64,000 nt of DNA from Nitrososphaeraceae archaeon (GTDB lineage: Archaea; Thermoproteota; Nitrososphaeria; Nitrososphaerales; Nitrososphaeraceae). Each line of letters begins with the position of its first letter. Positions within the stretch are counted from its first letter, which is position 1. Positions 22,397 through 34,917 of the stretch are shown here, in pieces. The DNA is taken from contig DATFEP010000064.1 of the NCBI GenBank assembly GCA_035250975.1, positions 32,001 to 96,000 on the forward strand, read 5' to 3'. The notes under the pieces are model-generated. The model saw nothing but the letters and a program-made list of their open reading frames with translations. It did not search any database and was not told the DNA's origin. The position numbers were made by a program, and so were the translations under genes.

Positions 22397-24043
22397 ATGA
22401 AAAAAAAGATTGTCGATGCTACTGTTTCTCTTTCAGAAATTAATGACAATAGTGTAGTAGCAATTTCTGGTTTCAATATGGCTATTACGCCAGAATACTT
22501 AATTCTGGAATTGTACAGAAAATATGTTGAGGAAGGACATCCTAAGAATATATTTATTATCTCAGATGCACTGCCGGCTATCCCCGGCAGAGCGATAGAT
22601 AAAATTGCTGAGCCCCTATATAATGATCTCAACCAAAAGTTTCTGCGGGGAATATTGATGCCTTTTTTGGGTTTTTCTCCATGGCTTCAAAAGATGGTAC
22701 ACGAAGACAGGATTGAATACTATGGCTGGCCAATAGGGATTACTGCGTATTGGTTTAGAGAGATCGCATCTGGAAGACCAGGACTTTTAACAAAAATCGG
22801 TATAGACACATTTTTGGATCCAAGAAGAGAGGGAGCTGCATTAAATGAACTTGGTAAGAAAAATGCATCCTGCAAAGTTAGTGTTTTAGATATTGATGGA
22901 GCAGAATGGCTGTTATATCAGGCTCCAAAACCTAATTGTTCCTTTATAAGAGCATCAACGTCTGACGAAGCAGGTAATTTGTCGATGGAAGATGAAGGTA
23001 TAAGAGGAACCATCCTCAGTATTGCACAAGCTACTAAAGCAAGCCCACATCAAGGGACTGTTATTGCACAAGTAAAATGGATCACACGATCGGGCTCGAT
23101 TAATCCAAGGGATGTTGATGTGCCTGGTCCATTGGTTGATTATGTTATAGTATCTCCAAAAAAATATCACTGGCAGAGCGGAAATATTGAATTTGATCCC
23201 AGAATATCATATAAAATACTTCCCTCATTAACAGATACATTGTTTTATGGTCTTCCCAAAGTATCTATGAAAGCACACGAAAAAGTGATAGCAAGAAGAG
23301 TCATCTTAGAATTAGTAAGATTACTAGAAGAAAAAAATGCACCAGTATTGGTTAACTTGGGAATAGGCATACCGGCTTTTGTTTCTTCTATAGCAGCTGA
23401 AGAGGAGGTATCGGAATTTATTATATCTGTACTTGAATCTGGTCAATGGGGGGGACTTGCTCTTTCGGGAAATGACTTTGGATTGGCAATCAGTCCATTT
23501 GCACTTTCAACAATTCCAGATGTATTTTCCAACTTTGAGGGGGGGATAATAGATGCTGCATCTCTTGGTTTTCTACAGATAGATAAGGAAGGTAATGTTA
23601 ACCCATCCATTCTTCCTAATAAGATATATGGACCTGGAGGATTTCCTGTTATTGCAGGTGGGGCACCTAGGACTTTCTTTGCGGGGTCTTTCACAGCAGG
23701 AAAAAGTGATATTATACTTTCAAACAAGACTATAAAAATCCAAAACGATGGACTAACATTGAAGTTCGTTGAAAAAGTCTACAAGATAGTATTTAGTGGA
23801 AAGCAAGCGGCTAAATACGGTCATACAATTCGCTATATTACTGAAAGAGCCGTCTTCAGGTTAACAGATCGTGGGATAGTTCTTGATGAGATTGCTCCTA
23901 AAATAGACATAGATAAAGAGATATTGGCAAAAATGGATTTTTTACCTATAATAGGTTCTAATCTCAGGACAATGGATGACAGAATTTTTGACGAATCAAA
24001 GATGAATATAAAAGAAGAAGTATTTCGTATTTTTAAAAAGTGA
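22397..24043 (+). CDS. Single-chain acyl-CoA:acetate/propionate CoA-transferase (YdiF/Pct type)
   Basis: TKIGIDTFLDPR, DEAGNL, VNLGIGIP, ESG catalytic Glu, GNVN, GPGGF, YITERAVF. Confidence 0.9.
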   Translation: MKKKIVDATVSLSEINDNSVVAISGFNMAITPEYLILELYRKYVEEGHPKNIFIISDALPAIPGRAIDKIAEPLYNDLNQKFLRGILMPFLGFSPWLQKMVHEDRIEYYGWPIGITAYWFREIASGRPGLLTKIGIDTFLDPRREGAALNELGKKNASCKVSVLDIDGAEWLLYQAPKPNCSFIRASTSDEAGNLSMEDEGIRGTILSIAQATKASPHQGTVIAQVKWITRSGSINPRDVDVPGPLVDYVIVSPKKYHWQSGNIEFDPRISYKILPSLTDTLFYGLPKVSMKAHEKVIARRVILELVRLLEEKNAPVLVNLGIGIPAFVSSIAAEEEVSEFIISVLESGQWGGLALSGNDFGLAISPFALSTIPDVFSNFEGGIIDAASLGFLQIDKEGNVNPSILPNKIYGPGGFPVIAGGAPRTFFAGSFTAGKSDIILSNKTIKIQNDGLTLKFVEKVYKIVFSGKQAAKYGHTIRYITERAVFRLTDRGIVLDEIAPKIDIDKEILAKMDFLPIIGSNLRTMDDRIFDESKMNIKEEVFRIFKK

Positions 24044-24144: not shown

Positions 24145-24807
24145 TTATACATACAAGAATTTTGAGAACCATTGTAAAGCCAACTTAGAAACTTCCTCTA
24201 GCGTTCCAGGTTCTTCAAAAAGATGTGTCGCCTTAGGAACAATTATCAATTTTTTATCTTTCACTTCTTTAAGATTTTCGAATGCATCTTTATTTAATTT
24301 TATAACTTCAATATCTTTTTCTCCAACTAGTAAGAGTGTTGGTGCTTTTACCTTGAAAAGTGCGTCATTTGCCAGATCCGGTCGCCCGCCTCTTGAAACA
24401 ATAGCTTTAATATTCTTATTATCTGCTGCAGCCACCAGAGCTGCAGCAGCACCAGTACTTGCACCAAAATATCCGATTTTTAAATCTTTTGTACTGGGAT
24501 TTTCTTGAATCCACTTCGTCGCATCATTCAATCTATCAGCCAAAAGTTTGATATCAAATCTGAAATGACCACTCCACATCTCTTCATGCTCTTCTTCTTT
24601 TGTAAGGAGATCAAACAAAAGTGTTGAAATATTACCATCTTGCAATGTTTGTGCTACATATTTATTTCTTGGACTAAATCGACTGCTTCCACTACCATGA
24701 ACAAAGAGAACTATTCCACTTGCCTTATCCGGAATTGAAAGATTACCTTCCAGTACTTTTGAACCAGAAGTAATAGACACACTATTAATAGCAGATTTTT
24801 TGGTCAT
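24145..24807 (-). CDS. Dienelactone-hydrolase-family alpha/beta hydrolase
   Basis: HGSGSSRFSPRN, GYFGASTGAAAAL, SRGGRPDLA, ATHLFEEPG. Confidence 0.9.
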   Translation of the reverse strand: MTKKSAINSVSITSGSKVLEGNLSIPDKASGIVLFVHGSGSSRFSPRNKYVAQTLQDGNISTLLFDLLTKEEEHEEMWSGHFRFDIKLLADRLNDATKWIQENPSTKDLKIGYFGASTGAAAALVAAADNKNIKAIVSRGGRPDLANDALFKVKAPTLLLVGEKDIEVIKLNKDAFENLKEVKDKKLIIVPKATHLFEEPGTLEEVSKLALQWFSKFLYV

Positions 24808-25086: not shown

Positions 25087-27375
25087 GTGATAATAAATTT
25101 AAATAACTTGAGAATATCTATTTCTGGAACAATACAAGGTGTAGGTTTTAGACCTTTTATCTATAGAATTGCAAATGAATCTCATCTTTACGGGTATATA
25201 CAGAATAAAGGAGATGGGATCGTAGAGATCTGCGTTCAAGGAAGCCAGAAAAATATTGAACTTTTCATAAGAAAAATGAAAAATGAGAAACCCGTCCTTG
25301 CACATTATGATCATATTGATATCATGGATCTTGATGAGAAAAAAAAATACAATGATTTTACCATAATTGATAGTTCCAAAACAAGATCAAAAACAGGTTC
25401 TTCAATCCACCCGGATATTTCAATATGTAAAAAGTGTACGATAGATTTTTATCAAAATAAAAGGAGATATCAGTATCCATTCATCTCATGTACCGAATGT
25501 GGGCCAAAATTTACGACATTAAAAATGTATCCTTACGACAGAACAAATACAACAATGTCAGATTTTGCAATGTGTAAAGAATGCGAATCTGAATATAATG
25601 AACCAAAGAATAGATTATTTCATTATGAACTAATATCCTGTACGGAATGTGGACCAAAATTTTCTATTGTAGATAACAAAGGTCATATTATCAATACCAA
25701 TGATCCCGTATCACTTTCAGCGAAATTGCTTATGGAAGGAAATATAATGGCTGTAAAGGGTCTTGGAGGTTTTCACGTCATAACATCATCCACAAAGTCC
25801 GAACCGATAATGAAATTGCGAAATAAAAAAGACAGAAAAAATAAACCTTTTGCGATCATGGGCAAAGATGTTCAATCCATAAAATCGTTTGCCTGCGTAA
25901 ACGATTTAGAAGAAAAAATATTAACTTCCATGACAAAACCTATTGTTCTATTAGACAAGAGTAACAATTATTTTCTTTCTCCTTTCATTTCACCGAATCT
26001 CCACAATGTTGGAGTTATGCTTCCTTATATGGGGTTACATATAATGTTATTCGAATCCATCGAAGAACCTGCTTTGGTTATGACCAGTGGAAACGAAAGT
26101 GGTAATCCGATAATAAAAGATAACAAAGAAGCTATAAAATCTCTAGGACATTATGTAGATTATTTTTTGATTCACAATAGAGAAATATTTTCGCGATGTG
26201 ATGACTCGATAATTAAAGTCATAGAAGATAACCCTATACTATTAAGAAGATCCAGAGGATTCGTTCCATCAAAGATCTCTTTTACAAAAAGTATTCCAGA
26301 TTGTATTCTAGCACTTGGTGGAGAAATGAACGTAGTATTCTGTATATTATATAATGAAGACTGTTTCATTTCACAACATATTGGAGACCTTTATAATCCA
26401 GATTCTTATTTATTTTTTAAGAGTACAATTGAACAAATGATGAAATTTCTAGATTTGAAACCGTCTTTTTTAGCATGTGATTTACATCCTTCTATGTTAA
26501 CGACGAACTTGGCTTATAATATTGCTCAGAATGAATCTAACGTCTTTCAAGTACAACACCATCACTCCCATATAGCCTCTCTAATGTCAGAACACAACAT
26601 ACAAGATATTATAGGAGTGGTGTGTGATGGAATTGGATATGGTTTAGATGGAAATCTATGGGGTGGGGAAATATTCAAATGCGAAAATGTAACAAACATT
26701 CAACGAATTGGACATTTAATTGAGCAACCCATGATAGGAGGAGATTTGGCGACACTAAACCCCTTAAGAATGGTCGCCGGAATACTATATGGCAAGGTTG
26801 ATGGTTTTGAAGATTTCCTATATTCAAATTTAACACGGTTCCGGTATGGACATAAAGAAATAGAATCCATCATTGGCAATCTGCAATCTGATTCATATTC
26901 CAAAACTACCAGTACGGGCAGGATACTTGATGCAATATCATCTCTACTTGGGATTTGTTATGATAGAACTTATGAAGGAGAGCCTGCAATATCACTAGAA
27001 TCAAGTTCAATAAATGGCAAAGATATTTTCATTGATCCAAAAATATCAGGAAATATTTTGGATACTACATATTTACTAAAATTTATATACGAAAACAGAG
27101 GTAGGCTTTCTCCAAGGGATCTCGGTTATTCTGCCCATTCCTATCTCGCAAATGGTTTAGGAGAAATTGCTGCAGAAAATGCACTGTCTACGGGTATCAA
27201 AGTTGTTGGGTTTTCAGGAGGAGTTGCACATAATAGAATTTTTACAAAAATCCTAAAAGAAGAGATTGAGAAGAGGGGGTTGAGGTTTCTACTACACCAA
27301 AAAATTCCACCTGGAGATGGAGGAATTTCTGTAGGTCAAGCTTATTATACTATGAATAAAATTCTAAATAGCTGA
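25087..27375 (+). CDS. hypF: Carbamoyltransferase HypF
   Basis: QGVGFRP acylphosphatase domain, two CxxC-x18-CxxC fingers, KGLGGFH, QHHHSH, DGIGYG, PGDGG. Confidence 0.96.
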   Translation: MIINLNNLRISISGTIQGVGFRPFIYRIANESHLYGYIQNKGDGIVEICVQGSQKNIELFIRKMKNEKPVLAHYDHIDIMDLDEKKKYNDFTIIDSSKTRSKTGSSIHPDISICKKCTIDFYQNKRRYQYPFISCTECGPKFTTLKMYPYDRTNTTMSDFAMCKECESEYNEPKNRLFHYELISCTECGPKFSIVDNKGHIINTNDPVSLSAKLLMEGNIMAVKGLGGFHVITSSTKSEPIMKLRNKKDRKNKPFAIMGKDVQSIKSFACVNDLEEKILTSMTKPIVLLDKSNNYFLSPFISPNLHNVGVMLPYMGLHIMLFESIEEPALVMTSGNESGNPIIKDNKEAIKSLGHYVDYFLIHNREIFSRCDDSIIKVIEDNPILLRRSRGFVPSKISFTKSIPDCILALGGEMNVVFCILYNEDCFISQHIGDLYNPDSYLFFKSTIEQMMKFLDLKPSFLACDLHPSMLTTNLAYNIAQNESNVFQVQHHHSHIASLMSEHNIQDIIGVVCDGIGYGLDGNLWGGEIFKCENVTNIQRIGHLIEQPMIGGDLATLNPLRMVAGILYGKVDGFEDFLYSNLTRFRYGHKEIESIIGNLQSDSYSKTTSTGRILDAISSLLGICYDRTYEGEPAISLESSSINGKDIFIDPKISGNILDTTYLLKFIYENRGRLSPRDLGYSAHSYLANGLGEIAAENALSTGIKVVGFSGGVAHNRIFTKILKEEIEKRGLRFLLHQKIPPGDGGISVGQAYYTMNKILNS

Positions 27376-27429
27376 TTTTTTATTATCTATAATCTTTATA
27401 GGCTAGATTTTCCTATCAATTCCAGGCTT

Positions 27430-27744
27430 ATGTGTTTGGCTTTTCCAGGCAAGATAACTGAAATAATAGGAGATTTTGCCAAGATAGATTTTGGTGGAGG
27501 TACTATGAGAAATAATATTAATATTTCCTACGTTGATGGTCAAGTGGGAGATTATGTTCTTATTCATGCAGGGTATGCAATCCAAGTATTGGACCTGGTT
27601 GAGGCCGAAAATATATTGAAATACTGGGTCGACAATACATCTTGGAAGTGTAACCAGTGTGAAATAATAAATGAATGTTACACCGGAAATTTGGTTAAAG
27701 AAGTAAAACAGATTAAACATAATAACTTGGGTTCGGAATCATGA
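27430..27744 (+). CDS. hypC: Hydrogenase maturation chaperone HypC with Cys-rich C-terminal extension
   Basis: MCLAFPG, GDYVLIHAGYA; extra WKCNQCEIINEC tail. Confidence 0.93.
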   Translation: MCLAFPGKITEIIGDFAKIDFGGGTMRNNINISYVDGQVGDYVLIHAGYAIQVLDLVEAENILKYWVDNTSWKCNQCEIINECYTGNLVKEVKQIKHNNLGSES

Positions 27745-28850
27745 TTCTAGAAAAGTACAAAGATCCCGAATTAGCAAAGAATATTACTGAAAAGATCCGT
27801 GAATATGCCGATTCGATAGAAGAGAACCTGCTTTTTATGCATGTTTGTGGATCTCATGAATGGACGATATCTCACTATGGCATAAGGTCGCTGATCCCTA
27901 AAAATATAGAGATAAGACCTGGACCTGGCTGTCCTGTTTGTATTACTCCAGCTGAGGATATAGACAATGCCATAAAGCTCGGTTTAGAAGGAAAAACCAT
28001 TTTAGTATATGGAGATATGTCAAGGTCGAAGGGATCAAAAGGAAAAAGCCTTTTAGATATAAGGGTACTTGGTGCTAAAATCAAGATAGTATACAGCATA
28101 CAGGAAGCCATATTATTAGCAAGAAATGACCCAACAGAAGACTTCGTCTTTTTCGGAGTAGGATTTGATACCACTGCCCCTCCTACTGCATTTGAGATAT
28201 TGAAAGGTTTACCACCGAATCTTGCTATCATTAATTCATATAGATATATGCCTCCAATAGTGGGTGCAGTTATAAAATCGTCTGTACTGGGTGTGGATGC
28301 CGTATTAAATCCGGGACATTCATCTACAATAACTGGAATGAAACCTTATTACAGATATTTTCTAGAAACTAGAAAACCTCAAGTCTTTTGTGGATTTGAA
28401 CCTATTGACATTTTATTGGGAATTCTAATTCTGTTAAAACAGATAAAAGATGGAAAGGCGAAACTAGAAAATGAATATCAAAGGTCAGTCACATGGGAAG
28501 GAAATAAACATGCTCAGAAAAAACTTGAAGATGTATTTGACCTAGACACAGGTTACATAAGAGGAGTAGCAAGTATTCCAGAATGCGGTTTTACGTTTAA
28601 GGAAAAATATAAGGATGTTGATGCATATGTCAAATATGGTTTATCAAGGCAAACAAATAATGAACATTTTGTAGCAGGAGCTCGATGTGGTGAAGTGATT
28701 TTAGGTCTTTGTGAACCTACTGAATGTCCGCTATATATGAAAGAATGTACTAAACAGACACCTAAAGGGCCTACGATGATTTCTCTTGAAGGCACATGTA
28801 GAATATGGGCTGAACATAATCTGATTAAATCTATAAAAAAACTTTCTTAA
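27741..28850 (+). CDS. hypD: Hydrogenase maturation protein HypD
   Basis: CGSHE, GPGCPVC, GFDTT, PGH, GFEP, C-terminal Cys cluster; ATGA overlap with hypC. Confidence 0.95.
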   Translation: MILEKYKDPELAKNITEKIREYADSIEENLLFMHVCGSHEWTISHYGIRSLIPKNIEIRPGPGCPVCITPAEDIDNAIKLGLEGKTILVYGDMSRSKGSKGKSLLDIRVLGAKIKIVYSIQEAILLARNDPTEDFVFFGVGFDTTAPPTAFEILKGLPPNLAIINSYRYMPPIVGAVIKSSVLGVDAVLNPGHSSTITGMKPYYRYFLETRKPQVFCGFEPIDILLGILILLKQIKDGKAKLENEYQRSVTWEGNKHAQKKLEDVFDLDTGYIRGVASIPECGFTFKEKYKDVDAYVKYGLSRQTNNEHFVAGARCGEVILGLCEPTECPLYMKECTKQTPKGPTMISLEGTCRIWAEHNLIKSIKKLS

Positions 28851-28869
28851 TATTCAATATTGATCTTTT

Positions 28870-29652
28870 ATGGCTTTTTTTATAGGAAATAGTTTTTGTA
28901 AACTTTGTCAAAAGGATGAAGAACAACTTGTAAGTGAATTATTTTACTGTACAAAGGGACTAATTAATAAGGGTTATTCGATAATTAAAAATACACTAAA
29001 TAGTGCACGACTCCCAAGTTGTGACGACTTTTATGTAACATATTTTAAAAATAATATATGGAATTCAGATATCAAAGTACTAAAAATAAATATAAAAGAT
29101 TGTTGTAATAATCATGAACAACCCACAAACGGTGTTGAAGTTGATAAAGGCGAAATTTTGCTACATACGAAAATATATCAAGCTCGTCCGGATGTCAATG
29201 CTATTTGTCATACAAGAAATCCATATTCGATAATTTTAGACAATGATACTTTTAAAAGAGTACATGGAGAAGCTACATTGATCTTAGGCGACATTCCTAT
29301 CATGGATATTGAAAATTTTTCTGATGAAAATAGAACGGTGAGCTTCATAGAAAAAATAGTTCAATCAACTATAGGCGAACCCCTAAGGCCTATAAGAACC
29401 GTAATATTATCAAACAATAGTGTTTTGGCTCTTGGTTCCTGCATACATGAAGCAAGAGCATTTACAGAAATACTGGAAGAATGTGCCAGATTTTACATGA
29501 TATCTAAAATTTTTGGCGGACCGCTAAATCTGCTTACACTTGATCAATTGAGAGGTTTGGGATCGAGATATGCAAGAGCCATAAAATTTGGAGGAAGGAA
29601 AATAATGTCTAATGCGAATCGTCCAGATGTTCGGATTAATAAAAATTTTTGA
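28870..29652 (+). CDS. Class II aldolase/adducin-like protein, probably metal-site-degenerate
   Basis: E...HTKIYQARPDVNAICHTRNPY; NNS in place of NHG; N-terminal CKLC. Confidence 0.75.
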   Translation: MAFFIGNSFCKLCQKDEEQLVSELFYCTKGLINKGYSIIKNTLNSARLPSCDDFYVTYFKNNIWNSDIKVLKINIKDCCNNHEQPTNGVEVDKGEILLHTKIYQARPDVNAICHTRNPYSIILDNDTFKRVHGEATLILGDIPIMDIENFSDENRTVSFIEKIVQSTIGEPLRPIRTVILSNNSVLALGSCIHEARAFTEILEECARFYMISKIFGGPLNLLTLDQLRGLGSRYARAIKFGGRKIMSNANRPDVRINKNF

Positions 29653-30056
29653 AAATGATGCTAAAAAAAATTCTAGTTTTTGGTAATCCTTTGGTTAGAA
29701 GGGACAGCCTGCCTCTAAAATTATTAGATGATCTTAGAAATGAATTTCCTAACATAGAATTCAAAGAATTTGATTCAATTGAAGAGATACAAAATGAAGG
29801 GGATACTCTTTACATTTTGGATTCGGTAGAAAAAATAAAAAAAGTGATGGTAATAACCGATTTAGATCAATTGGCTACAGACAAAATATATTCGGTCCAT
29901 GATTTTGATTTAGCTATCAACCTCAAGATACTAAAGAAAATAGGTGTGATAAAAAAGATAATTATTCTTGGAGTGCCTATGAATATTACGCATAGTCAGG
30001 CATTACAAGAGATTAGAGAAAAAATTATATCCATTTCAATCTCAAAAAATGACTAG
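29649..30056 (+). CDS. Divergent hydrogenase maturation protease-like protein
   Basis: ILVFGNPLVRRD, ILDS, SVHD match HycI/HybD-type motifs; short (about 133 aa). Confidence 0.75.
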   Translation: MKMMLKKILVFGNPLVRRDSLPLKLLDDLRNEFPNIEFKEFDSIEEIQNEGDTLYILDSVEKIKKVMVITDLDQLATDKIYSVHDFDLAINLKILKKIGVIKKIIILGVPMNITHSQALQEIREKIISISISKND

Positions 30057-31302
30057 CACAACTCATACACGGATCGTATGCCCTTATTATTTTTTCAAGC
30101 TCATGATAAATAAAGTGTTTATCTTTGTCTAAAATGCTAGGTAAATGATTTTTTATATCATTTTCCATCTTAATTTGATTTTGTGCTGTTGGTATTACAA
30201 AGTTGGCAAATTGTACTTTTCCTTCTCTGTTAAGTTCAACCATATGATACAATGTACCACGAGGAGCCTCTATTACTCCAACTCCTTTACCTTCTCTTGT
30301 TTTAATTTCGGGAGGAGATTCGCGAGTAAATTCATTTTCTTCAAGAATTTGAATAGTATGATCTATACAATGTAGAATTTCAATAGATTGTGCAAGATTG
30401 TTATGATAAATATTATTTGATGGAAAGACTTTAAGGATTTCAGATATATCCTTTTTTGAATTTTTATGGATAGATTCTCTATTCAAATTTAACCTAGCCA
30501 AAGCTCCTACCATGTATTCTTTGTCCCTGAATCTAAATCCAGTAGCCTGAGAATACGGGATAATAATTCTTTCTAGGTGATTCCAATATTCATCTTCTTT
30601 TATTTTCATTCCGTCTGAAGAAGCGATCTCACCCTCCAAAAAACTAAAATCGTCTGTAACTAGAGATACGAAAGTGGATTCTCTGCTAAGGTCAAAATTG
30701 CATTCATAAAATATTTTTATGAGTTCAAGAACCGTATCTCTAGTTGCTTTAAATTCTGACAATAATTCTTTTAAATTTTCTTTTGAAGGTAAATGAGAAA
30801 ACTGTCCAACCTTTTCAAATGTTGGATGAACAGCCCTGCCAGCAACTATTTTCGAAAGATTGTTTCCAAGACTTTTTACATTGAAACCCTGTTTGATTAG
30901 ATAATTTTTTGTTTCATCAAAATCAAATACAGAATCTGTATTAAAAACATCAGGAAGACAGAAGAAGTACAAATGTAAAGCATGATCCCGTATCATCATT
31001 CCATATACAGATAACTTTCTTAATAATTCAGTTTGTTTTGTTGGTGTGATCTCGAGACATTTTTCGATTGATTCAATGCTACAGGTTAAGTGTGCTATGC
31101 TACATGTACCGCATATCCTAGAAACAAATTGTGGAACACTAGAAAAATGTCTATTTCTTACTGCTTGTGTATAAAATCTTTTATTTTCATTTATCTTTAA
31201 TTTGACATCTTCTACTTTTCCCTTCCTAATTTTTACTTCAATGTCTGCATGACCTTCTGTTTTACTTATTTGTTCTATATTGATATCGAAACTATCATGC
31301 AT
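30025..31302 (-). CDS. [NiFe]-hydrogenase large subunit, group 3b-related
   Basis: TEGH, L1 RICGTCSIAH, EAPRG, PTAQN, L2 YDPCMSCASH plus a 7-aa cleavable tail. Confidence 0.93.
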   Translation of the reverse strand: MHDSFDINIEQISKTEGHADIEVKIRKGKVEDVKLKINENKRFYTQAVRNRHFSSVPQFVSRICGTCSIAHLTCSIESIEKCLEITPTKQTELLRKLSVYGMMIRDHALHLYFFCLPDVFNTDSVFDFDETKNYLIKQGFNVKSLGNNLSKIVAGRAVHPTFEKVGQFSHLPSKENLKELLSEFKATRDTVLELIKIFYECNFDLSRESTFVSLVTDDFSFLEGEIASSDGMKIKEDEYWNHLERIIIPYSQATGFRFRDKEYMVGALARLNLNRESIHKNSKKDISEILKVFPSNNIYHNNLAQSIEILHCIDHTIQILEENEFTRESPPEIKTREGKGVGVIEAPRGTLYHMVELNREGKVQFANFVIPTAQNQIKMENDIKNHLPSILDKDKHFIYHELEKIIRAYDPCMSCASHFLRLKWI

Positions 31303-31774
31303 TTACAAGACCAAATTCCTTCATATAACCATCTAATTTTGATAGAAATAATTTTTCATCCATTGGACATCCCGAAATGAAATCATCAACATTTACAAAT
31401 TCCGAAATAGGAGATACCTTGTTTCTTTGTCCAAACTGCTCTAAAATATGGAAAATCTCATTTTTTGTCGAATCATCAAAGTAATTTCTTTGATTCGCTG
31501 GGCTTCCTGTACATGCACAACTTCCTATTGCAATTAATTTTTTTGAATTCTTCCTTATTTCTTTAAGAAATTCAAGCTCTTTGTCAGTTGAAATTGCTCC
31601 TTCTACAAAAGCCAAATCTAAATTAGTAAAATCGTTTTTTCCTTTGAAAGTTCTAAAATATTTAAAATCCAGTAGATCTTTCCACTTTAAAAAATTATCA
31701 TTCATTAATTCTATGAACACTATAGTACTGTCTTCGCAACATGTAAATGAAAACCAGCCAGTTTTGAGTTTCAT
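31295..31774 (-). CDS. Truncated [NiFe]-hydrogenase small subunit (NuoB/delta-like domain only)
   Basis: WFSFTCCEDS, VEGAI, IGSCAC, SGCP; 159 aa from ATG 31774; overlaps the large-subunit start. Confidence 0.88.
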   Translation of the reverse strand: MKLKTGWFSFTCCEDSTIVFIELMNDNFLKWKDLLDFKYFRTFKGKNDFTNLDLAFVEGAISTDKELEFLKEIRKNSKKLIAIGSCACTGSPANQRNYFDDSTKNEIFHILEQFGQRNKVSPISEFVNVDDFISGCPMDEKLFLSKLDGYMKEFGLVNA

Positions 31775-31998
31775 TAACACATTAGCAATAAAGCTATCGT
31801 ATTTAAAATAGTTCACCTTTTTGATTCCCAATTTTCATTTTAACATATTTGTTTTAGAAAATTGTGTTGCGACATTTTATTATTTAATTTACGTTAGTTA
31901 TCTTATTAAATTCTAAAAATCGATCATCTTAAATCTTGTTAACAAAAAATTATCTTTTTACAAAGAAATTTGAAAGAGTTCTAAATACTATAACTATA

Positions 31999-33054
31999 AT
32001 GGAAAAAAAGAGAATAAGTCTAGCACACGGAGCAGGTGGTGTGCTTATGAATAACCTGATTAAAAACCAAATCTTGAAATACTTTAGTTTAAACCATCAT
32101 GAAGTTTCCTTAAATGCTCTAGACGATGCGGGTATAACTGAAGGCATTGTTTTTACTACAGATTCTTATACAGTAAAACCGCTTTTTTTTCCTGGAGGTA
32201 ATATAGGTGTAATGTCTGTTGCGGGAACCGTAAACGATATTGCAGTAATGGGTGGAAAACCCTTAGTGCTATCATGTAGTATGATAATTGAAGAAGGCTT
32301 CTCAATTGAGGAGTTAGACCTAATTATAAAAAGCATTCAAGAAACATGCATTCAAGCTGACGTGGATATAATTACAGGAGACACCAAAGTTCTAGAAAGA
32401 AATGCGTTGGACAAACTAATTATTAATACTTCTGCTGTTGGTAAAAAAAGTCAATACTTAGAAAAAAATCTAAAGATTGTAAAAAGATACAACCCCAACT
32501 TTAATTCTGATTGGTTACTTGATTCAAATATTGAGAAGGGGCACAAAATAATAATTTCAGGAACACTAGGTGATCATGGGGTTGCGATAATGTCTGCAAG
32601 AAATGAATATGGTTTGGAGAGTCAAGTAGAATCAGATGTTGCACCATTAAATAATTTGATTCAAAAAGGGCTTGATGTCGGAGGCGTAGTAAGCATAAAG
32701 GATCCCACGCGTGGAGGACTTGCAAATCTTCTAAATGAATGGTCTGAGAAATCAAAAACTGGTTTTATAATTCTTGAAAAAGATATTCCCGTTAAAGAAA
32801 GCGTGAGAAGTGCATTAGGATTTCTTGGACTTGATGTATTAGAAATAGGAAATGAAGGAAAAATTTGCCTAGCGGTAATACCGGAAAAAGCAGAAGAAAT
32901 ACTAGGTATCTTGAGAGAAACACCAGAAGGTAAGGATGCGATGATAATTGGAGAGGCAACAGACGAATTTGATTTACCTATCCTGGAAACTCAGATAGGC
33001 GGTAGAAGAATCCTTGCAAAACCTGCAGCAGATCCTATTCCCAGAATATGCTAG
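31999..33054 (+). CDS. hypE: Carbamoyl dehydratase HypE
   Basis: HGAGG, TTDSY, GTVND, GDTKV, KDPTRGG, NEGK, C-terminal PRIC. Confidence 0.96.
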   Translation: MEKKRISLAHGAGGVLMNNLIKNQILKYFSLNHHEVSLNALDDAGITEGIVFTTDSYTVKPLFFPGGNIGVMSVAGTVNDIAVMGGKPLVLSCSMIIEEGFSIEELDLIIKSIQETCIQADVDIITGDTKVLERNALDKLIINTSAVGKKSQYLEKNLKIVKRYNPNFNSDWLLDSNIEKGHKIIISGTLGDHGVAIMSARNEYGLESQVESDVAPLNNLIQKGLDVGGVVSIKDPTRGGLANLLNEWSEKSKTGFIILEKDIPVKESVRSALGFLGLDVLEIGNEGKICLAVIPEKAEEILGILRETPEGKDAMIIGEATDEFDLPILETQIGGRRILAKPAADPIPRIC

Positions 33055-33333
33055 GTGATATCGTTGTTTAGAGGAGTAGAAGATCGTGTCAACAAAAAAT
33101 TAATTTGTAAAGTTTGCGGATATATTGAATATAATTTTCCAAAACATCACGAAATGCCTATGAGATGGATTACAACCGGTAGTTTTAATAAAGAAGAACT
33201 TTTGAAATGTCAAAAATGTGACTATACAATACCGATCTTAATACATTGTAATGTGTCAATGTTTTATTCTGAAGGGGATTATCTTGATTTACCTGAATTT
33301 ACAAAAAAAGATTATCAGGATATAGACAAATAA
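33055..33333 (+). CDS. Small tandem Cys/His metal-binding protein
   Basis: CKVC...HHEMPM and CQKC...HCNVSM repeats; GTG start directly after the hypE stop. Confidence 0.65.
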   Translation: MISLFRGVEDRVNKKLICKVCGYIEYNFPKHHEMPMRWITTGSFNKEELLKCQKCDYTIPILIHCNVSMFYSEGDYLDLPEFTKKDYQDIDK

Positions 33334-33334
33334 A

Positions 33335-33709
33335 GTGATTATGTTGTCATTTTTCTGGCATTTAAAATTTGCTATTTTTATGTTTGAGATCGCTAAATCT
33401 GAATTGAATAAAAATAATTATGTAGTAGCTAATGCTGTCATTAAAACTTTTACAGAGATAATAGATGCCTATTTATCGAAGGCGAATAATCTTATTGATG
33501 AAGCAAGTTTAGAGGGATGGAAAGAAAGAATCCATTGGATGAGTGAAAATAATCATGAATTATTAAATGAATGGAAAATGGTGAATTCTCTTTGTTTTGA
33601 GATGATGAATCAGGGAAAATACTACAACAACGTTGCAATAAAATTAATAGAAATAGTTCAAAATAGACTAAATAAGATTGGATCAGATGATTACGGGGAT
33701 TACTTTTAA
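33335..33709 (+). CDS. Hypothetical helical protein
   Basis: 124-aa ORF starting 1 nt after the previous stop. Confidence 0.5.
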   Translation: MIMLSFFWHLKFAIFMFEIAKSELNKNNYVVANAVIKTFTEIIDAYLSKANNLIDEASLEGWKERIHWMSENNHELLNEWKMVNSLCFEMMNQGKYYNNVAIKLIEIVQNRLNKIGSDDYGDYF

Positions 33710-33719
33710 TTTGATTGAT

Positions 33720-34373
33720 CTAATTCGTCAACTTTTTAACCACTAGGCATTTTGCCCACTCTTCGCATAAATCAACTACAAATTTTGCTTCATGAATGCA
33801 TCTGCCCACACCTATAACTCCATGGTTCAATAATATTATTAATCCAAACGGAACTACACAATCAAATTTACTTGCCTTACCCACGAGATTTCCTAATCCC
33901 TTAGACCCGAGTTGTTTGTACTCAACTATCAAGGGTTTATCATGTAATACTTTTGGAAAAGCGATGGATGGTGTTCCTGCTAATGTCCATATACCTTCAT
34001 TGTCTATATTTACTAGTTTAGAAGACAGAAAATATCCTGAGGTATAGGGATTATGAACGTGACATACTGCATTAATATCTGATCTGTTTTTATATATTTC
34101 AGTGTGAAAAGGAACTTCGATAGTTGGTTTAAGGTTTCCCTTCAAAACATTTCCATCCAAGTCGATTAACAATAGATCGTCTGAAGTTATATGTGATCTT
34201 GGATATCCAGATGGAGTGATCCAAATTTGATTATCTAATTTTGAACGAAAACTATGGTTTCCACCACCAACCGAAACCAACCCATGGGAAAAAAAATACT
34301 TTATAGCAGATATTAATTCATTTTTAAACATATGTTCGTCATATACTTTACAAATATCACAAAACATCTTCAT
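33720..34373 (-). CDS. Class II aldolase/adducin-family protein with intact metal site
   Basis: GGNHS, ITPSG, PTIE...H, CHVHNPY, LLNHG; N-terminal CDIC. Confidence 0.88.
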   Translation of the reverse strand: MKMFCDICKVYDEHMFKNELISAIKYFFSHGLVSVGGGNHSFRSKLDNQIWITPSGYPRSHITSDDLLLIDLDGNVLKGNLKPTIEVPFHTEIYKNRSDINAVCHVHNPYTSGYFLSSKLVNIDNEGIWTLAGTPSIAFPKVLHDKPLIVEYKQLGSKGLGNLVGKASKFDCVVPFGLIILLNHGVIGVGRCIHEAKFVVDLCEEWAKCLVVKKLTN

Positions 34374-34917
34374 TTGTGTGTACCATTCATTTAATTTTAA
34401 CTTAATTGTTAGGAAAGATAGCTGTTTCCCAAAATTAAATGATAATATCTTTTGAAATGCCGTTATCTTATAAATATTAGAGTAGTATATGAAAAATTAG
34501 AGGGACTGATAATTTTTACATTATCTAACTATGTAGAGGTGAACATCATAATTATTGGATACACGAAGTATGTTTGATTATGTGATTTGTTTTATCCTGA
34601 TTAAATAATATGATCTTAATGATCGGTTTGCTGAAACCAACCGTATAGAATCTTTTTTGTTTTTTTGAAATTGTTTTGCATCTCCTTAACTGTTTTTATT
34701 TAACTCGTCAAGTTGGTATAATAGTTTTCTATGTTATATATCAAGTATTTTTTTCATCATAGGTCTGTACTCCTGCATTACGATATAGAAATCATGAAAT
34801 TAACATTAGATGAAAATAACAAGATAATTATTACCAAACTAGAAGTTTAGAAAAATATTTAAAAATAAAGAAAAAAATTTAGGATGAGCTAGATGAAAAT
34901 ATACTTTGTTTATTTAG

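Follow-up and report, generated by a model that had tools for sequence, protein, structure and literature searches.

The 64-kb stretch of Nitrososphaeraceae DNA analyzed here (hereafter the window) holds a complete [NiFe]-hydrogenase and maturation gene set, in which two genes for class II aldolase-fold proteins are embedded: AldT, which bears a C-terminal tail, and AldS, which is tail-less. The aldolase-like gene (ald) is a fixed part of one particular Hyp module, hypE-o92-hypC-hypD-ald, whatever hydrogenase is served; it represents an undescribed accessory family of the known Hyp machinery, and the AldS/AldT pair is a natural split of that protein. The hyp-linked aldolase-like protein is likely to be a dedicated Hyp accessory, and we somewhat favor the reading that AldT and AldS are subfunctionalized halves of one hyp-operon-specific aldolase-fold metalloprotein that would serve cofactor assembly under oxic conditions. 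As for the specific chemistry, supply of the carbon monoxide (CO) ligand is the leading guess, a tentative one drawn from analogy.

AldT and AldS both exceed the cut-off of the class II aldolase/adducin family PF00596 (22.2 bits) and are paralogs of this fold (25% identity over 223 aligned columns, E 2e-16); the host genome (2.49 Mb, 94.6% complete) has no further class II aldolase gene. As an earlier note on this DNA had described, the two open reading frames (ORFs) share an N-terminal CxxC, formed by C10/C13 in AldT and C5/C8 in AldS, and a G-x-CIHEA motif (G-S-CIHEA and G-R-CIHEA, respectively). Its description of the metal sites also agrees with the sequences, since AldS has the glutamate of TIEVPFH together with HVH and NHG (its further motifs are GGGNHS, TPSGYPR and GRCIHEA), and AldT has HTR and NNS at the aligned metal places, having lost the second and third metal histidines and the phosphate-site motifs. 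AldT lies between hypD and a protease-like ORF, as the note stated, starting 19 nt past the hypD stop and ending 4 nt into the protease-like ORF; AldS is convergent with hypE-o92-o124. The AlphaFold2 model of AldT (mean predicted local distance difference test score 76.5) matches class II aldolase-fold proteins in Foldseek, with probability 1.00 to FucA, POD and adducin. Neither protein reaches a curated cut-off among the NCBIfam equivalogs (FucA_Meth, AraD, MtnB, OtnC and others), the best scores being 84.7 against 250 for AldS, with 62.5 against 137 for MtnB, and 43.9 against 267 for AldT; neither matches the HypA and HypB models PF01155 and TIGR00073.

Linkage of the aldolase-like gene to one Hyp module

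The hyp-linked family is defined here by an N-terminal Cys pair, a GxC[IVL]HE motif and a position next to hypD or in a hyp locus, and its T form additionally by an H[GA]E[AG] loop and a K-F-G-G-R tail. AldT shows all of these features, and AldS shows the Cys pair, GRCIHE and the locus position. Sequences from 30 related loci and the window were aligned, with 13 generic class II aldolases as comparison. The N-terminal Cys pair (CxC in the AldS of Nitrosocaldaceae) and GxC[IVL]HE occur in 31/31 tail-bearing and 16/16 AldS-type rows and in none of the 13 aldolases that are not linked to hyp genes, which also lack the tail; because the Cys motifs recur in all hyp-linked rows and are missing from all 13 others, they are not a chance resemblance. 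Thirty columns are invariant from the Sulfolobaceae-type through the Nitrososphaerales proteins. The blocks specific to the AldT family are an N-terminal M-x-F/Y-x-x-G-N-x-F/Y-C-x-x-C, the loop V/T-H-G/A-E-A-x-x-x-L-G, G-x-C-[IVL]-H-E-A-R-A-F-x-E-I-x-E-E, and the C-terminal tail G-x-R/K/G-Y/H-x-R-x-[IV]-K-F-G-G-R; in the window they include VHGEA, GSCIHEA and RYARAIKFGGR.

The distribution of the family was followed in 401 Thermoproteota genomes (the phylum sample), in 401 Nitrososphaerales genomes (the order sample) and in a scan of GTDB species. In the phylum sample, class II aldolases of any kind are found in 200 of the 401 genomes, and full-length matches to the tail-bearing family (at least 290 bits) in eight, all among the 267 genomes with HypD. 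With the host genome excluded, the gene stands directly after hypD in 7/7 of these loci, six of which have the order hypE-o92-hypC-hypD-ald, the seventh (G353) having extra sequence between o92 and hypC. The species scan gave 23 loci, and in all 23 the gene directly follows hypD: 19 are from Nitrososphaerales (Nitrososphaera, Nitrososphaeraceae, Nitrosocaldus, Nitrosothermus metagenome-assembled genomes (MAGs) and Archaeon HR04), three are from Sulfolobaceae (Metallosphaera, Acidianus and one further isolate), and one is a 5.9-kb contig in a MAG labeled Methanomethylicia, the proteins of which group with the Sulfolobaceae ones. In the order sample, 31 genomes have HypD and 18 of them AldT; in 18/18 the AldT match lies on the strand of the HypD match and starts about 45 to 125 nt past its end. 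A HypD score of 387-407 bits picks out exactly these 18; in the remaining 13 genomes HypD scores 435-474 bits (families f66, f71, f72 and f77) and AldT is missing, as it is from all 370 genomes without HypD. The tie to hyp genes proposed in the earlier note is thus borne out by the neighborhood survey (7/7, 23/23 and 18/18).

The linkage extends to the type of HypD. The HypDs linked to AldT are 55-97% identical to that of the window, and those of six fetched hyp sets without AldT (the second set of G361, the sole set of G156 and four from Nitrososphaerales families lacking AldT) are 38-41% identical to it; these sets also have another gene order, hypD-hypC-hypE or hypF-hypC-hypD, and o92 is missing in 6/6. 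Because AldT follows a specific HypD clade, and hyp sets without it differ in HypD, gene order and o92, the gene is to be regarded as a fixed member of the module. The hydrogenase itself varies: that of the window and those of Nitrosocaldaceae are 3b-like, and the Sulfolobaceae-type large subunits share only 24-27% identity with that of the window. Outside Sulfolobaceae-type genomes and ammonia-oxidizing Nitrososphaerales the module was not found. One Sulfolobaceae-type genome (G361) has two hyp sets, hypE-o92-hypC-hypD-ald and hypD-hypC-hypE, the latter without o92 or an aldolase-like gene, and the two mirror the 'aerobic' and 'anaerobic' sets of Acidianus brierleyi.

Generic class II aldolases of the same phylum form a separate clade in the tree, and 12 of the 13 loci fetched for them have no hyp gene in about 20 kb, the remaining one (L052) having a hypF 9 kb off. 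Many Nitrososphaeraceae without HypD carry a third, generic class II aldolase of about 190-225 aa (for example L040), which has neither the Cys motifs nor the tail, so PF00596 alone is no marker of the hyp-linked family. Wider relatives of AldS (from Ignisphaera, Bathyarchaeia and others, 28-39% identity) were set aside as generic, being without the Cys motifs and the tail.

The AldT family is small and sharply bounded, since a profile search of 1.84 billion cluster representatives gave five clusters of at least 235 bits and the next match at 149 bits. A search of 5.8 billion proteins returned 79 relatives of AldT at 36-95% identity, and all those with a named source come from Nitrososphaeraceae, Nitrosocaldaceae or Nitrososphaerales.

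Complementary conservation in AldT and AldS

In its complete form the family is a single gene that unites a metal site of three histidines (His3), the HGE loop, the N-terminal CxxC, GxCIHE and the basic C-terminal tail. This form is found in Sulfolobaceae-type genomes and in two Nitrososphaerales records, L065 and L089, the latter of which, from the order sample, has the same gene layout as L065 and is probably the same record. HxH and NHG are both kept in 11 of the 31 tail-bearing rows, namely the Sulfolobaceae-type loci and L065 (some of these rows are duplicates), and no second copy is seen within the stretches fetched for these 11. In Nitrososphaeraceae and Nitrosocaldaceae, HxH is missing from all 20 tail-bearing rows and [NDQ]HG from 19, the exception being L066 with QHG. 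The AldS rows are their mirror image: HxH is present in 16/16 and N/D-H-G with GGGNHS in 15/16, the sixteenth being cut by a contig end, and neither the tail nor the H[GA]E[AG] loop is present in any of the 16.

The two partial forms occur together. Of the 18 species-scan loci with a degenerate AldT, 14 have an AldS nearby; among the four others, two contigs end early and two show no AldS within the fetched 10 kb. AldS is placed directly downstream of AldT in Nitrosocaldaceae and beside hypE-o92-o124 in Nitrososphaeraceae, and a second copy is present in 17 of the 18 AldT genomes of the order sample. In a maximum-likelihood tree of 57 rows, the degenerate AldT proteins fall into a single clade on a long stem (branch 0.61, support 100/100), the AldS proteins form another (100/100) that is joined to the complete single-copy L065 (83/81), and the Sulfolobaceae-type rows form a third. 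This pattern suggests that the AldS/AldT pair arose by complementary loss from a single form resembling the complete one.

The earlier note had taken the two genes for an active and a dead copy. The loss of the second and third metal histidines in AldT stands, but the description is too simple, since the loss is complementary and AldT retains the first histidine of HxH (H114, invariant) together with invariant residues of its own, namely H132 and E134 and, in the tail, R233, R236, K239, F240, G242 and R243. AldT is under purifying selection and is not decaying: in comparison with a 94%-identical relative (L053), the ratio of nonsynonymous to synonymous substitution rates (dN/dS) is 0.18 for AldT and 0.16 for AldS, against 0.06-0.13 for hypC, hypD, hypE, the protease and the large subunit, in line with the note's expectation that the degenerate copy would not be evolving neutrally. 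Given this ratio, its own invariant residues and tail, and its kept operon position, a decaying, functionless duplicate is ruled out as an account of AldT by the conservation data. Two of three metal histidines and the phosphate-site motifs have indeed gone, as such a copy would have it; yet AldT is intact in 20/20 degenerate-type rows from two families, with a conserved tail and the same place between hypD and the protease, and decay therefore retains a negligible probability.

The solved aldolases of the FucA type (Escherichia coli 1FUA/4FUA and Streptococcus pneumoniae 4C25) give these losses a structural meaning. The hyp-linked family has the same fold (Foldseek template modeling score up to 0.75), the complete form matches FucA with phmmer E values of 1e-22 to 1e-15, and the complete forms and AldS keep His3, the position of Glu73 and most of the phosphate-binding motifs. 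According to the part of the E. coli FucA (EcFucA) literature available (PMC11841055), the active site is a cleft formed with the adjacent subunit, Glu73 and Tyr113' of the neighboring subunit are essential, and the phosphate ligands are Asn29, Thr43, Gly44, Ser71 and Ser72. The metal histidines are present in AldS and in the single-copy complete forms and not in AldT. The Glu73 position is occupied in AldS (TIEVPFH) and in the complete forms (PSIE), and it is a glutamate in the AldT of the window, but variable across the AldT family. At the phosphate site, four of the five positions look kept in AldS (GGGNHS, TPSG, PT-I-E) and in the complete forms (GGNQS, TPSG, PS-I-E), with Ser72 replaced by Ile. 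Unlike FucA, the family does not keep the catalytic Tyr113': T-H-G-E of the complete form aligns on S-H-Y-M of 4C25, so that glycine stands in place of the tyrosine and is followed by an invariant glutamate, with VHGEA in AldT and IDNEG in AldS at the same place. The family further differs from FucA in its extra N-terminal Cys pair, GxCIHE and basic tail of about 35 residues, in its linkage to hyp genes, and in being split into two complementary genes in Nitrososphaerales.

Read against this shared cleft, AldS keeps the share of the FucA site that belongs to a subunit's own chain (His3, Glu, GGN, TPSG and P-T/S), and AldT keeps the share contributed by the neighboring subunit, that is, the loop at the Tyr113' position (H-G-E, with H and E invariant) and the long tail; the N-terminal Cys pair and GxCIHE are retained in both. 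Because AldS keeps the own-subunit parts and AldT the neighbor-subunit parts, we infer a hetero-oligomer with composite sites, and the split pair is probably a heteromer with complementary half-sites. Its architecture would be a FucA-like tetramer with active sites built from two neighboring subunits, in which AldS would provide the His3 metal site and the phosphate-binding site and AldT the cross-interface loop, with H-G-E replacing the H-Tyr113'-M of FucA, and the basic C-terminal tail; the two proteins would then be functional only as an obligate hetero-oligomer. Seen in this way, the split would be a natural dissection of two functional halves, an unusually clean case of complementary degeneration in an enzyme with a shared active site.

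The AldT model also finds two aldolase-fold Fe(II) oxygenases, pyruvic oxime dioxygenase (POD, 8IL8/8IQA) and NovR (9RYG), among its top or high Foldseek matches, and these share the His3 metal site. In the available portion of PMC11841055, the N-terminal extension of POD is essential for activity, and in an AlphaFold2 model it covers the active site of the adjacent subunit, toward which the C-terminus extends as well, so that these predicted terminal extensions parallel the N-terminal Cys motif and tail of the hyp-linked family. Sequence identity to POD and NovR is only 14-20%, however, and the likeness is one of fold only; moreover, the same portion of that source describes POD as devoid of Glu73 and of a phosphate site, features largely retained in the hyp-linked family.

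Oxic expression and proposed function

The link to oxygen comes from Acidianus brierleyi, which consumes atmospheric H2 (PMC11018855). Its group 2e hydrogenase cluster has the order hypE2, an 'HPC' of 252 nt, hypC4, hypD2 and 'fucA' (Leung et al. 2024, PMC11018855), the last being DFR85_RS29975 (WP_246252918, 2607614-2608297), labeled 'other_function'. This gene, directly downstream of hypD2, is an ortholog of the complete form, with HAHSPY, THGEA, NHG, GACIHEARAF and the tail RYIRAVKFGGR, and it differs from the system described here in that a single complete gene takes the place of the pair. Its RefSeq start (M-C-Q-T-D-E-E...) coincides with the second Cys of the CxxC, the conserved N-terminus probably having been cut off; the DRAM call in the supplement of PMC11018855 is 24 nt longer. 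DFR85_RS29975 is the only class II aldolase entry among the matches listed from the A. brierleyi protein table (six 'adducin' occurrences).

In the proteomes of that study (PMC11018855), the signal intensities for 'fucA' were 0 and three near 4.4e7 in exponential oxic heterotrophic growth (EX), 1.65e8 to 2.0e8 over four replicates in the oxic stationary phase (ST), 0.95e8 to 1.23e8 over four replicates in aerobic growth on H2 (AE), and 0, 0, 0 and 0 in anoxic, sulfur-dependent growth on H2 (AN). The ortholog was thus detected in 11 of 12 oxic samples (3/4 EX, 4/4 ST and 4/4 AE) and in none of the four anoxic ones. HypC4, HypD2 and HypE2, each annotated as 'putative aerobic hydrogenase maturation factor', show the same detection pattern (PMC11018855), and the ortholog is accordingly co-expressed with the oxic Hyp set in A. 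brierleyi. The other set, hypD1-hypC1-hypE1, stands beside the anaerobic group 1g enzyme and is expressed in AN, and its map rows contain no aldolase gene (PMC11018855).

A dedicated oxic factor for hydrogenase maturation is already known in HypX. According to the parts of a 2025 review that were available (PMC12134894), HypX generates CO from N10-formyl-tetrahydrofolate (N10-formyl-THF) under oxic conditions, the source of CO being otherwise unresolved, and the origin of the CO ligand and cofactor assembly in air without HypX are open questions; the review, which is by Sawers and colleagues, lists no aldolase-like factor in these parts, nor does it use the word 'aldolase' there. The hyp-linked family resembles HypX in its place as an accessory within the hyp clusters of H2 oxidizers that respire oxygen, and in being expressed with oxic maturation. 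In fold it is unlike HypX, which the available text describes as a fusion of a formyltransferase and an enoyl-coenzyme A (CoA) hydratase that uses N10-formyl-THF and CoA (PMC12134894), while AldT and AldS match PF00596 only, and CO production by an aldolase-like protein is hypothetical. No gene with a formyltransferase-N domain was found in the four Sulfolobaceae-type genomes with AldT (4/4), and the host genome and G353 hold only ORFs of 209-359 aa with this domain (in the host genome two Formyl_trans_N matches, of 209 and 359 aa) and no fusion of HypX size.

In the mechanism proposed here, the ald protein, as the fifth fixed member of the module hypE-o92-hypC-hypD-ald, would help to assemble the NiFe(CN)2CO cofactor when oxygen is present. 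The CO ligand might be made from a small phosphorylated carbonyl or enediol compound, either by aldol release of an aldehyde followed by decarbonylation or by an O2-dependent cleavage like that of acireductone dioxygenase, and it would be passed on to HypCD at a site formed by the Cys motif and the basic tail; the family would thus be a functional analogue, not a homologue, of HypX. CO supply is ranked first because HypX is missing, because the fold is compatible with C-C cleavage through a metal enediolate as well as with Fe(II)/O2 chemistry, and because the aldolase tyrosine is replaced in a site that keeps its phosphate motifs. The full version of this proposal, in which the ald enzyme is an archaeal, folate-independent and oxygen-compatible source of the CO ligand that works by metal-enediolate chemistry on a phosphorylated substrate, is speculative, and we hold it to be rather unlikely as a whole; if true, it would amount to a second, independently evolved CO pathway beside HypX. 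Of the earlier note's suggestion of CO supply in a HypX-like role, the oxic link has held, through the A. brierleyi proteome and the HypX-like gene that was not found, and the CO chemistry is an analogy.

Several points weigh against the reading of AldT and AldS as halves of an oxic maturation enzyme. The functional evidence is genomic context and co-expression throughout, and the proteome support comes from one species in one study. The CO chemistry is argued by analogy, drawing on the association with oxic conditions, on the missing HypX and on the oxygenases that share the fold. As AldS and the complete forms have most of FucA's residues for phosphate binding and of the Glu73 type, an ordinary aldol or epimerase reaction on a sugar phosphate would also be chemically possible. 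The AldS/AldT heteromer is inferred from sequence; the center of the tree is unresolved and its root arbitrary, and the order of duplication and loss is permitted by it, not proven. The oxic lifestyle of the sampled genomes is deduced from the named loci and general knowledge, Sulfolobaceae being aerobic or facultative and ammonia oxidizers obligate aerobes. A complex prediction of HypD, HypC and AldT gave scores of 0.00 and 0.22, under the mark of 0.32, and speaks neither for nor against binding.

The most serious competitor is a non-catalytic or redox helper, either a donor or store of Fe(II) or Ni that uses His3 and a Cys3His site, or a thiol-disulfide partner for the cysteines of HypC, HypD or HypE. 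The confinement of the N-terminal Cys pair and GxC[IVL]HE to the hyp-linked clade, where all tail-bearing and AldS rows have them, would suit such a role, as would the replaced Tyr113' and the debate over the iron source for HypCD in the available part of PMC10847431. It would also suit the host genome, in which no HypA is found over the cut-off (best 23.8 bits against 28.9, contig C23) and no HypB either (best 78.2 against 121.2, contig C2, perhaps a GTPase of the urease type). The phosphate motifs (GGN, TPSG and PS/T-x-E) kept in the complete forms and AldS would, however, be needless in a mere metal carrier, the module contains in o92, with its two CxxC/H[CH]/M repeats, a more obvious metallochaperone, and for Nitrosocaldus cavascurensis a putative HypA has been reported at another place in the genome. 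A helper of this kind is therefore a possibility that we regard as doubtful, and the earlier idea of metal handling in place of HypA/B is weakened, o92 being the better candidate.

That the family is an ordinary sugar-phosphate aldolase, epimerase or dehydratase of the FucA, AraD or MtnB kind, active in carbon or methionine salvage and merely traveling with hyp genes, is very improbable. Its matches to Pfam and to NCBIfam models for FucA, AraD and MtnB, the metal and phosphate motifs intact in AldS, and the public annotation as fuculose-phosphate aldolase all fit such an enzyme; against these stand NCBIfam scores far under the cut-offs, the loss of Tyr113', and the absence of the gene from every genome without the specific HypD clade (0/370 without any HypD). 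Adjacency to hypD has been held across the deep split between Sulfolobaceae and Nitrososphaerales, expression in A. brierleyi tracks the oxic hyp set, and generic class II aldolases fall in their own clade without Cys motifs or tail. The loci share no other neighbors by tblastn with the flanking genes of the window, a comparison that did not include a scan for sugar kinase or transporter genes. The earlier suggestion of a sugar-phosphate metabolism feeding the hydrogenase accordingly finds no support in the neighboring genes. For cofactor assembly in air, the family stands as a concrete, narrowly distributed and strictly hyp-linked candidate in aerobic H2-oxidizing archaea.

The gene has been drawn in one published cluster map, that of PMC11018855, under its general label. 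The word 'aldolase' is absent from the main text of that paper, and literature searches, which in part covered titles and the starts of abstracts, found no published role for an aldolase-like gene beside hypD. The main texts of the Nitrosocaldus genome papers leave it unmentioned, and their supplements (PMC5817080 Supplementary Figure S6 and PMC5797428) may draw it; the hydrogenase-cluster table of N. cavascurensis includes hypC (NCAV_0682) and stops at hypD (NCAV_0683), NCAV_0684 and NCAV_0685 being left out. Among the ammonia oxidizers covered by a 2023 review, Nitrosocaldus alone is credited with 3b hydrogenases (PMC10432482); the window adds soil Nitrososphaeraceae, in which an intact minimal hydrogenase stands together with a maturation set of its own.

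Gene content of the locus

The module to which the aldolase-like protein belongs is a variant of the Hyp machinery, marked by a distinct HypD clade, o92 and the aldolase-like protein, in a host genome with no HypA or HypB over the cut-off. Its genes in the window and those of the hydrogenase are given in Table 1.

Table 1. Hydrogenase, maturation and aldolase-like genes of the window, with positions counted from its first nucleotide.
Feature	Position	Strand	Product and matches
hypF	25087-27375	+	762 aa; Pfam HypF_C_2, Sua5, zf-HYPF, Acylphosphatase
hypC	27430-27744	+	104 aa; Pfam HupF_HypC 73.9 bits; C-terminal WKCxxCxIxxEC extension
hypD	27741-28850	+	369 aa; Pfam HypD 387.5 bits; clade with aldolase-like gene always downstream
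AldT, class II aldolase-fold, tail-bearing	28870-29652	+	260 aa; PF00596 58 bits
Putative hydrogenase maturation endopeptidase	29649-30056	+	135 aa; weak HycI match only, E 0.0079
[NiFe]-hydrogenase large subunit, group 3b-like	30025-31302	-	425 aa; Pfam NiFeSe_Hases
Small subunit, truncated	31295-31831	-	178 aa; Pfam Oxidored_q6; proximal-cluster Cys only
hypE	31936-33054	+	372 aa; TIGR02124 358.8 bits, cut-off 251.6
o92, small protein	33055-33333	+	92 aa; two CxxC...P-x-H-[CH]...M repeats
o124, conserved hypothetical	33335-33709	+	124 aa; after o92; no family match (Pfam, NCBIfam)
AldS, class II aldolase-fold, tail-less	33720-34373	-	217 aa; PF00596 118.5 bits

The o92 protein consists of two copies of CxxC-x7/8-P-x-H-[C/H]-x3-M, with C18, C21, P29, H31, M36, C52, C55, H64, C65 and M69 invariant, and it follows hypE in AldT-type operons, being detected in 28 of 30 related loci, among them all that also show hypE. 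It has no Pfam or NCBIfam match, its best PDB sequence match has E 0.24 and Foldseek gives none at E <= 0.001, and on this lack of family, PDB-sequence or fold match it was set aside as a HypA relative; it is a candidate metallochaperone of the module. Of the 19 Nitrososphaerales loci of the species scan, 13 have o124 after o92 (tblastn, 30-89% identity), as has L089; o124 was not detected by tblastn in Sulfolobaceae-type loci. The HypC extension W-K-C-x-x-C-x-I-x-x-E-C, with three conserved Cys, is present in all Nitrososphaerales orthologs, and the Sulfolobaceae-type HypCs of the same module are without it.

The 3b-like [NiFe]-hydrogenase of the window is minimal, with two subunits. Its large subunit scores 269 bits with NCBIfam ShyA, under the cut-off of that model, and has intact RICGTCS and DPCMSCASH motifs with only seven residues after the histidine. 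The protease-like ORF adjoins either AldT or the large subunit, an arrangement conserved across Nitrososphaeraceae loci, and tblastn with the window genes revealed no other gene common to the surroundings of the hydrogenase in these loci, no scan having been made for diaphorase-type subunits. Just upstream of hypF lies a 548-aa CoA-transferase-family protein (22397-24043, + strand), and between the two a dienelactone-hydrolase-family protein (24145-24807, - strand), which recurs upstream of hypF in four Nitrososphaeraceae loci (L053, L054, L055 and L066).

In positions 27400-34400, 90-99% similar contigs of three soil metatranscriptome libraries, which come from two studies, cover parts of hypC/hypD, the junction of the large and small subunits, the protease-like ORF, hypE and AldS and leave the body of AldT uncovered. 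As contigs in RNA libraries are no proof of transcription, neither the cover nor the gap is read as evidence. A fourth run (X16) covers all of 27400-34400, but its label as RNA is a guess.

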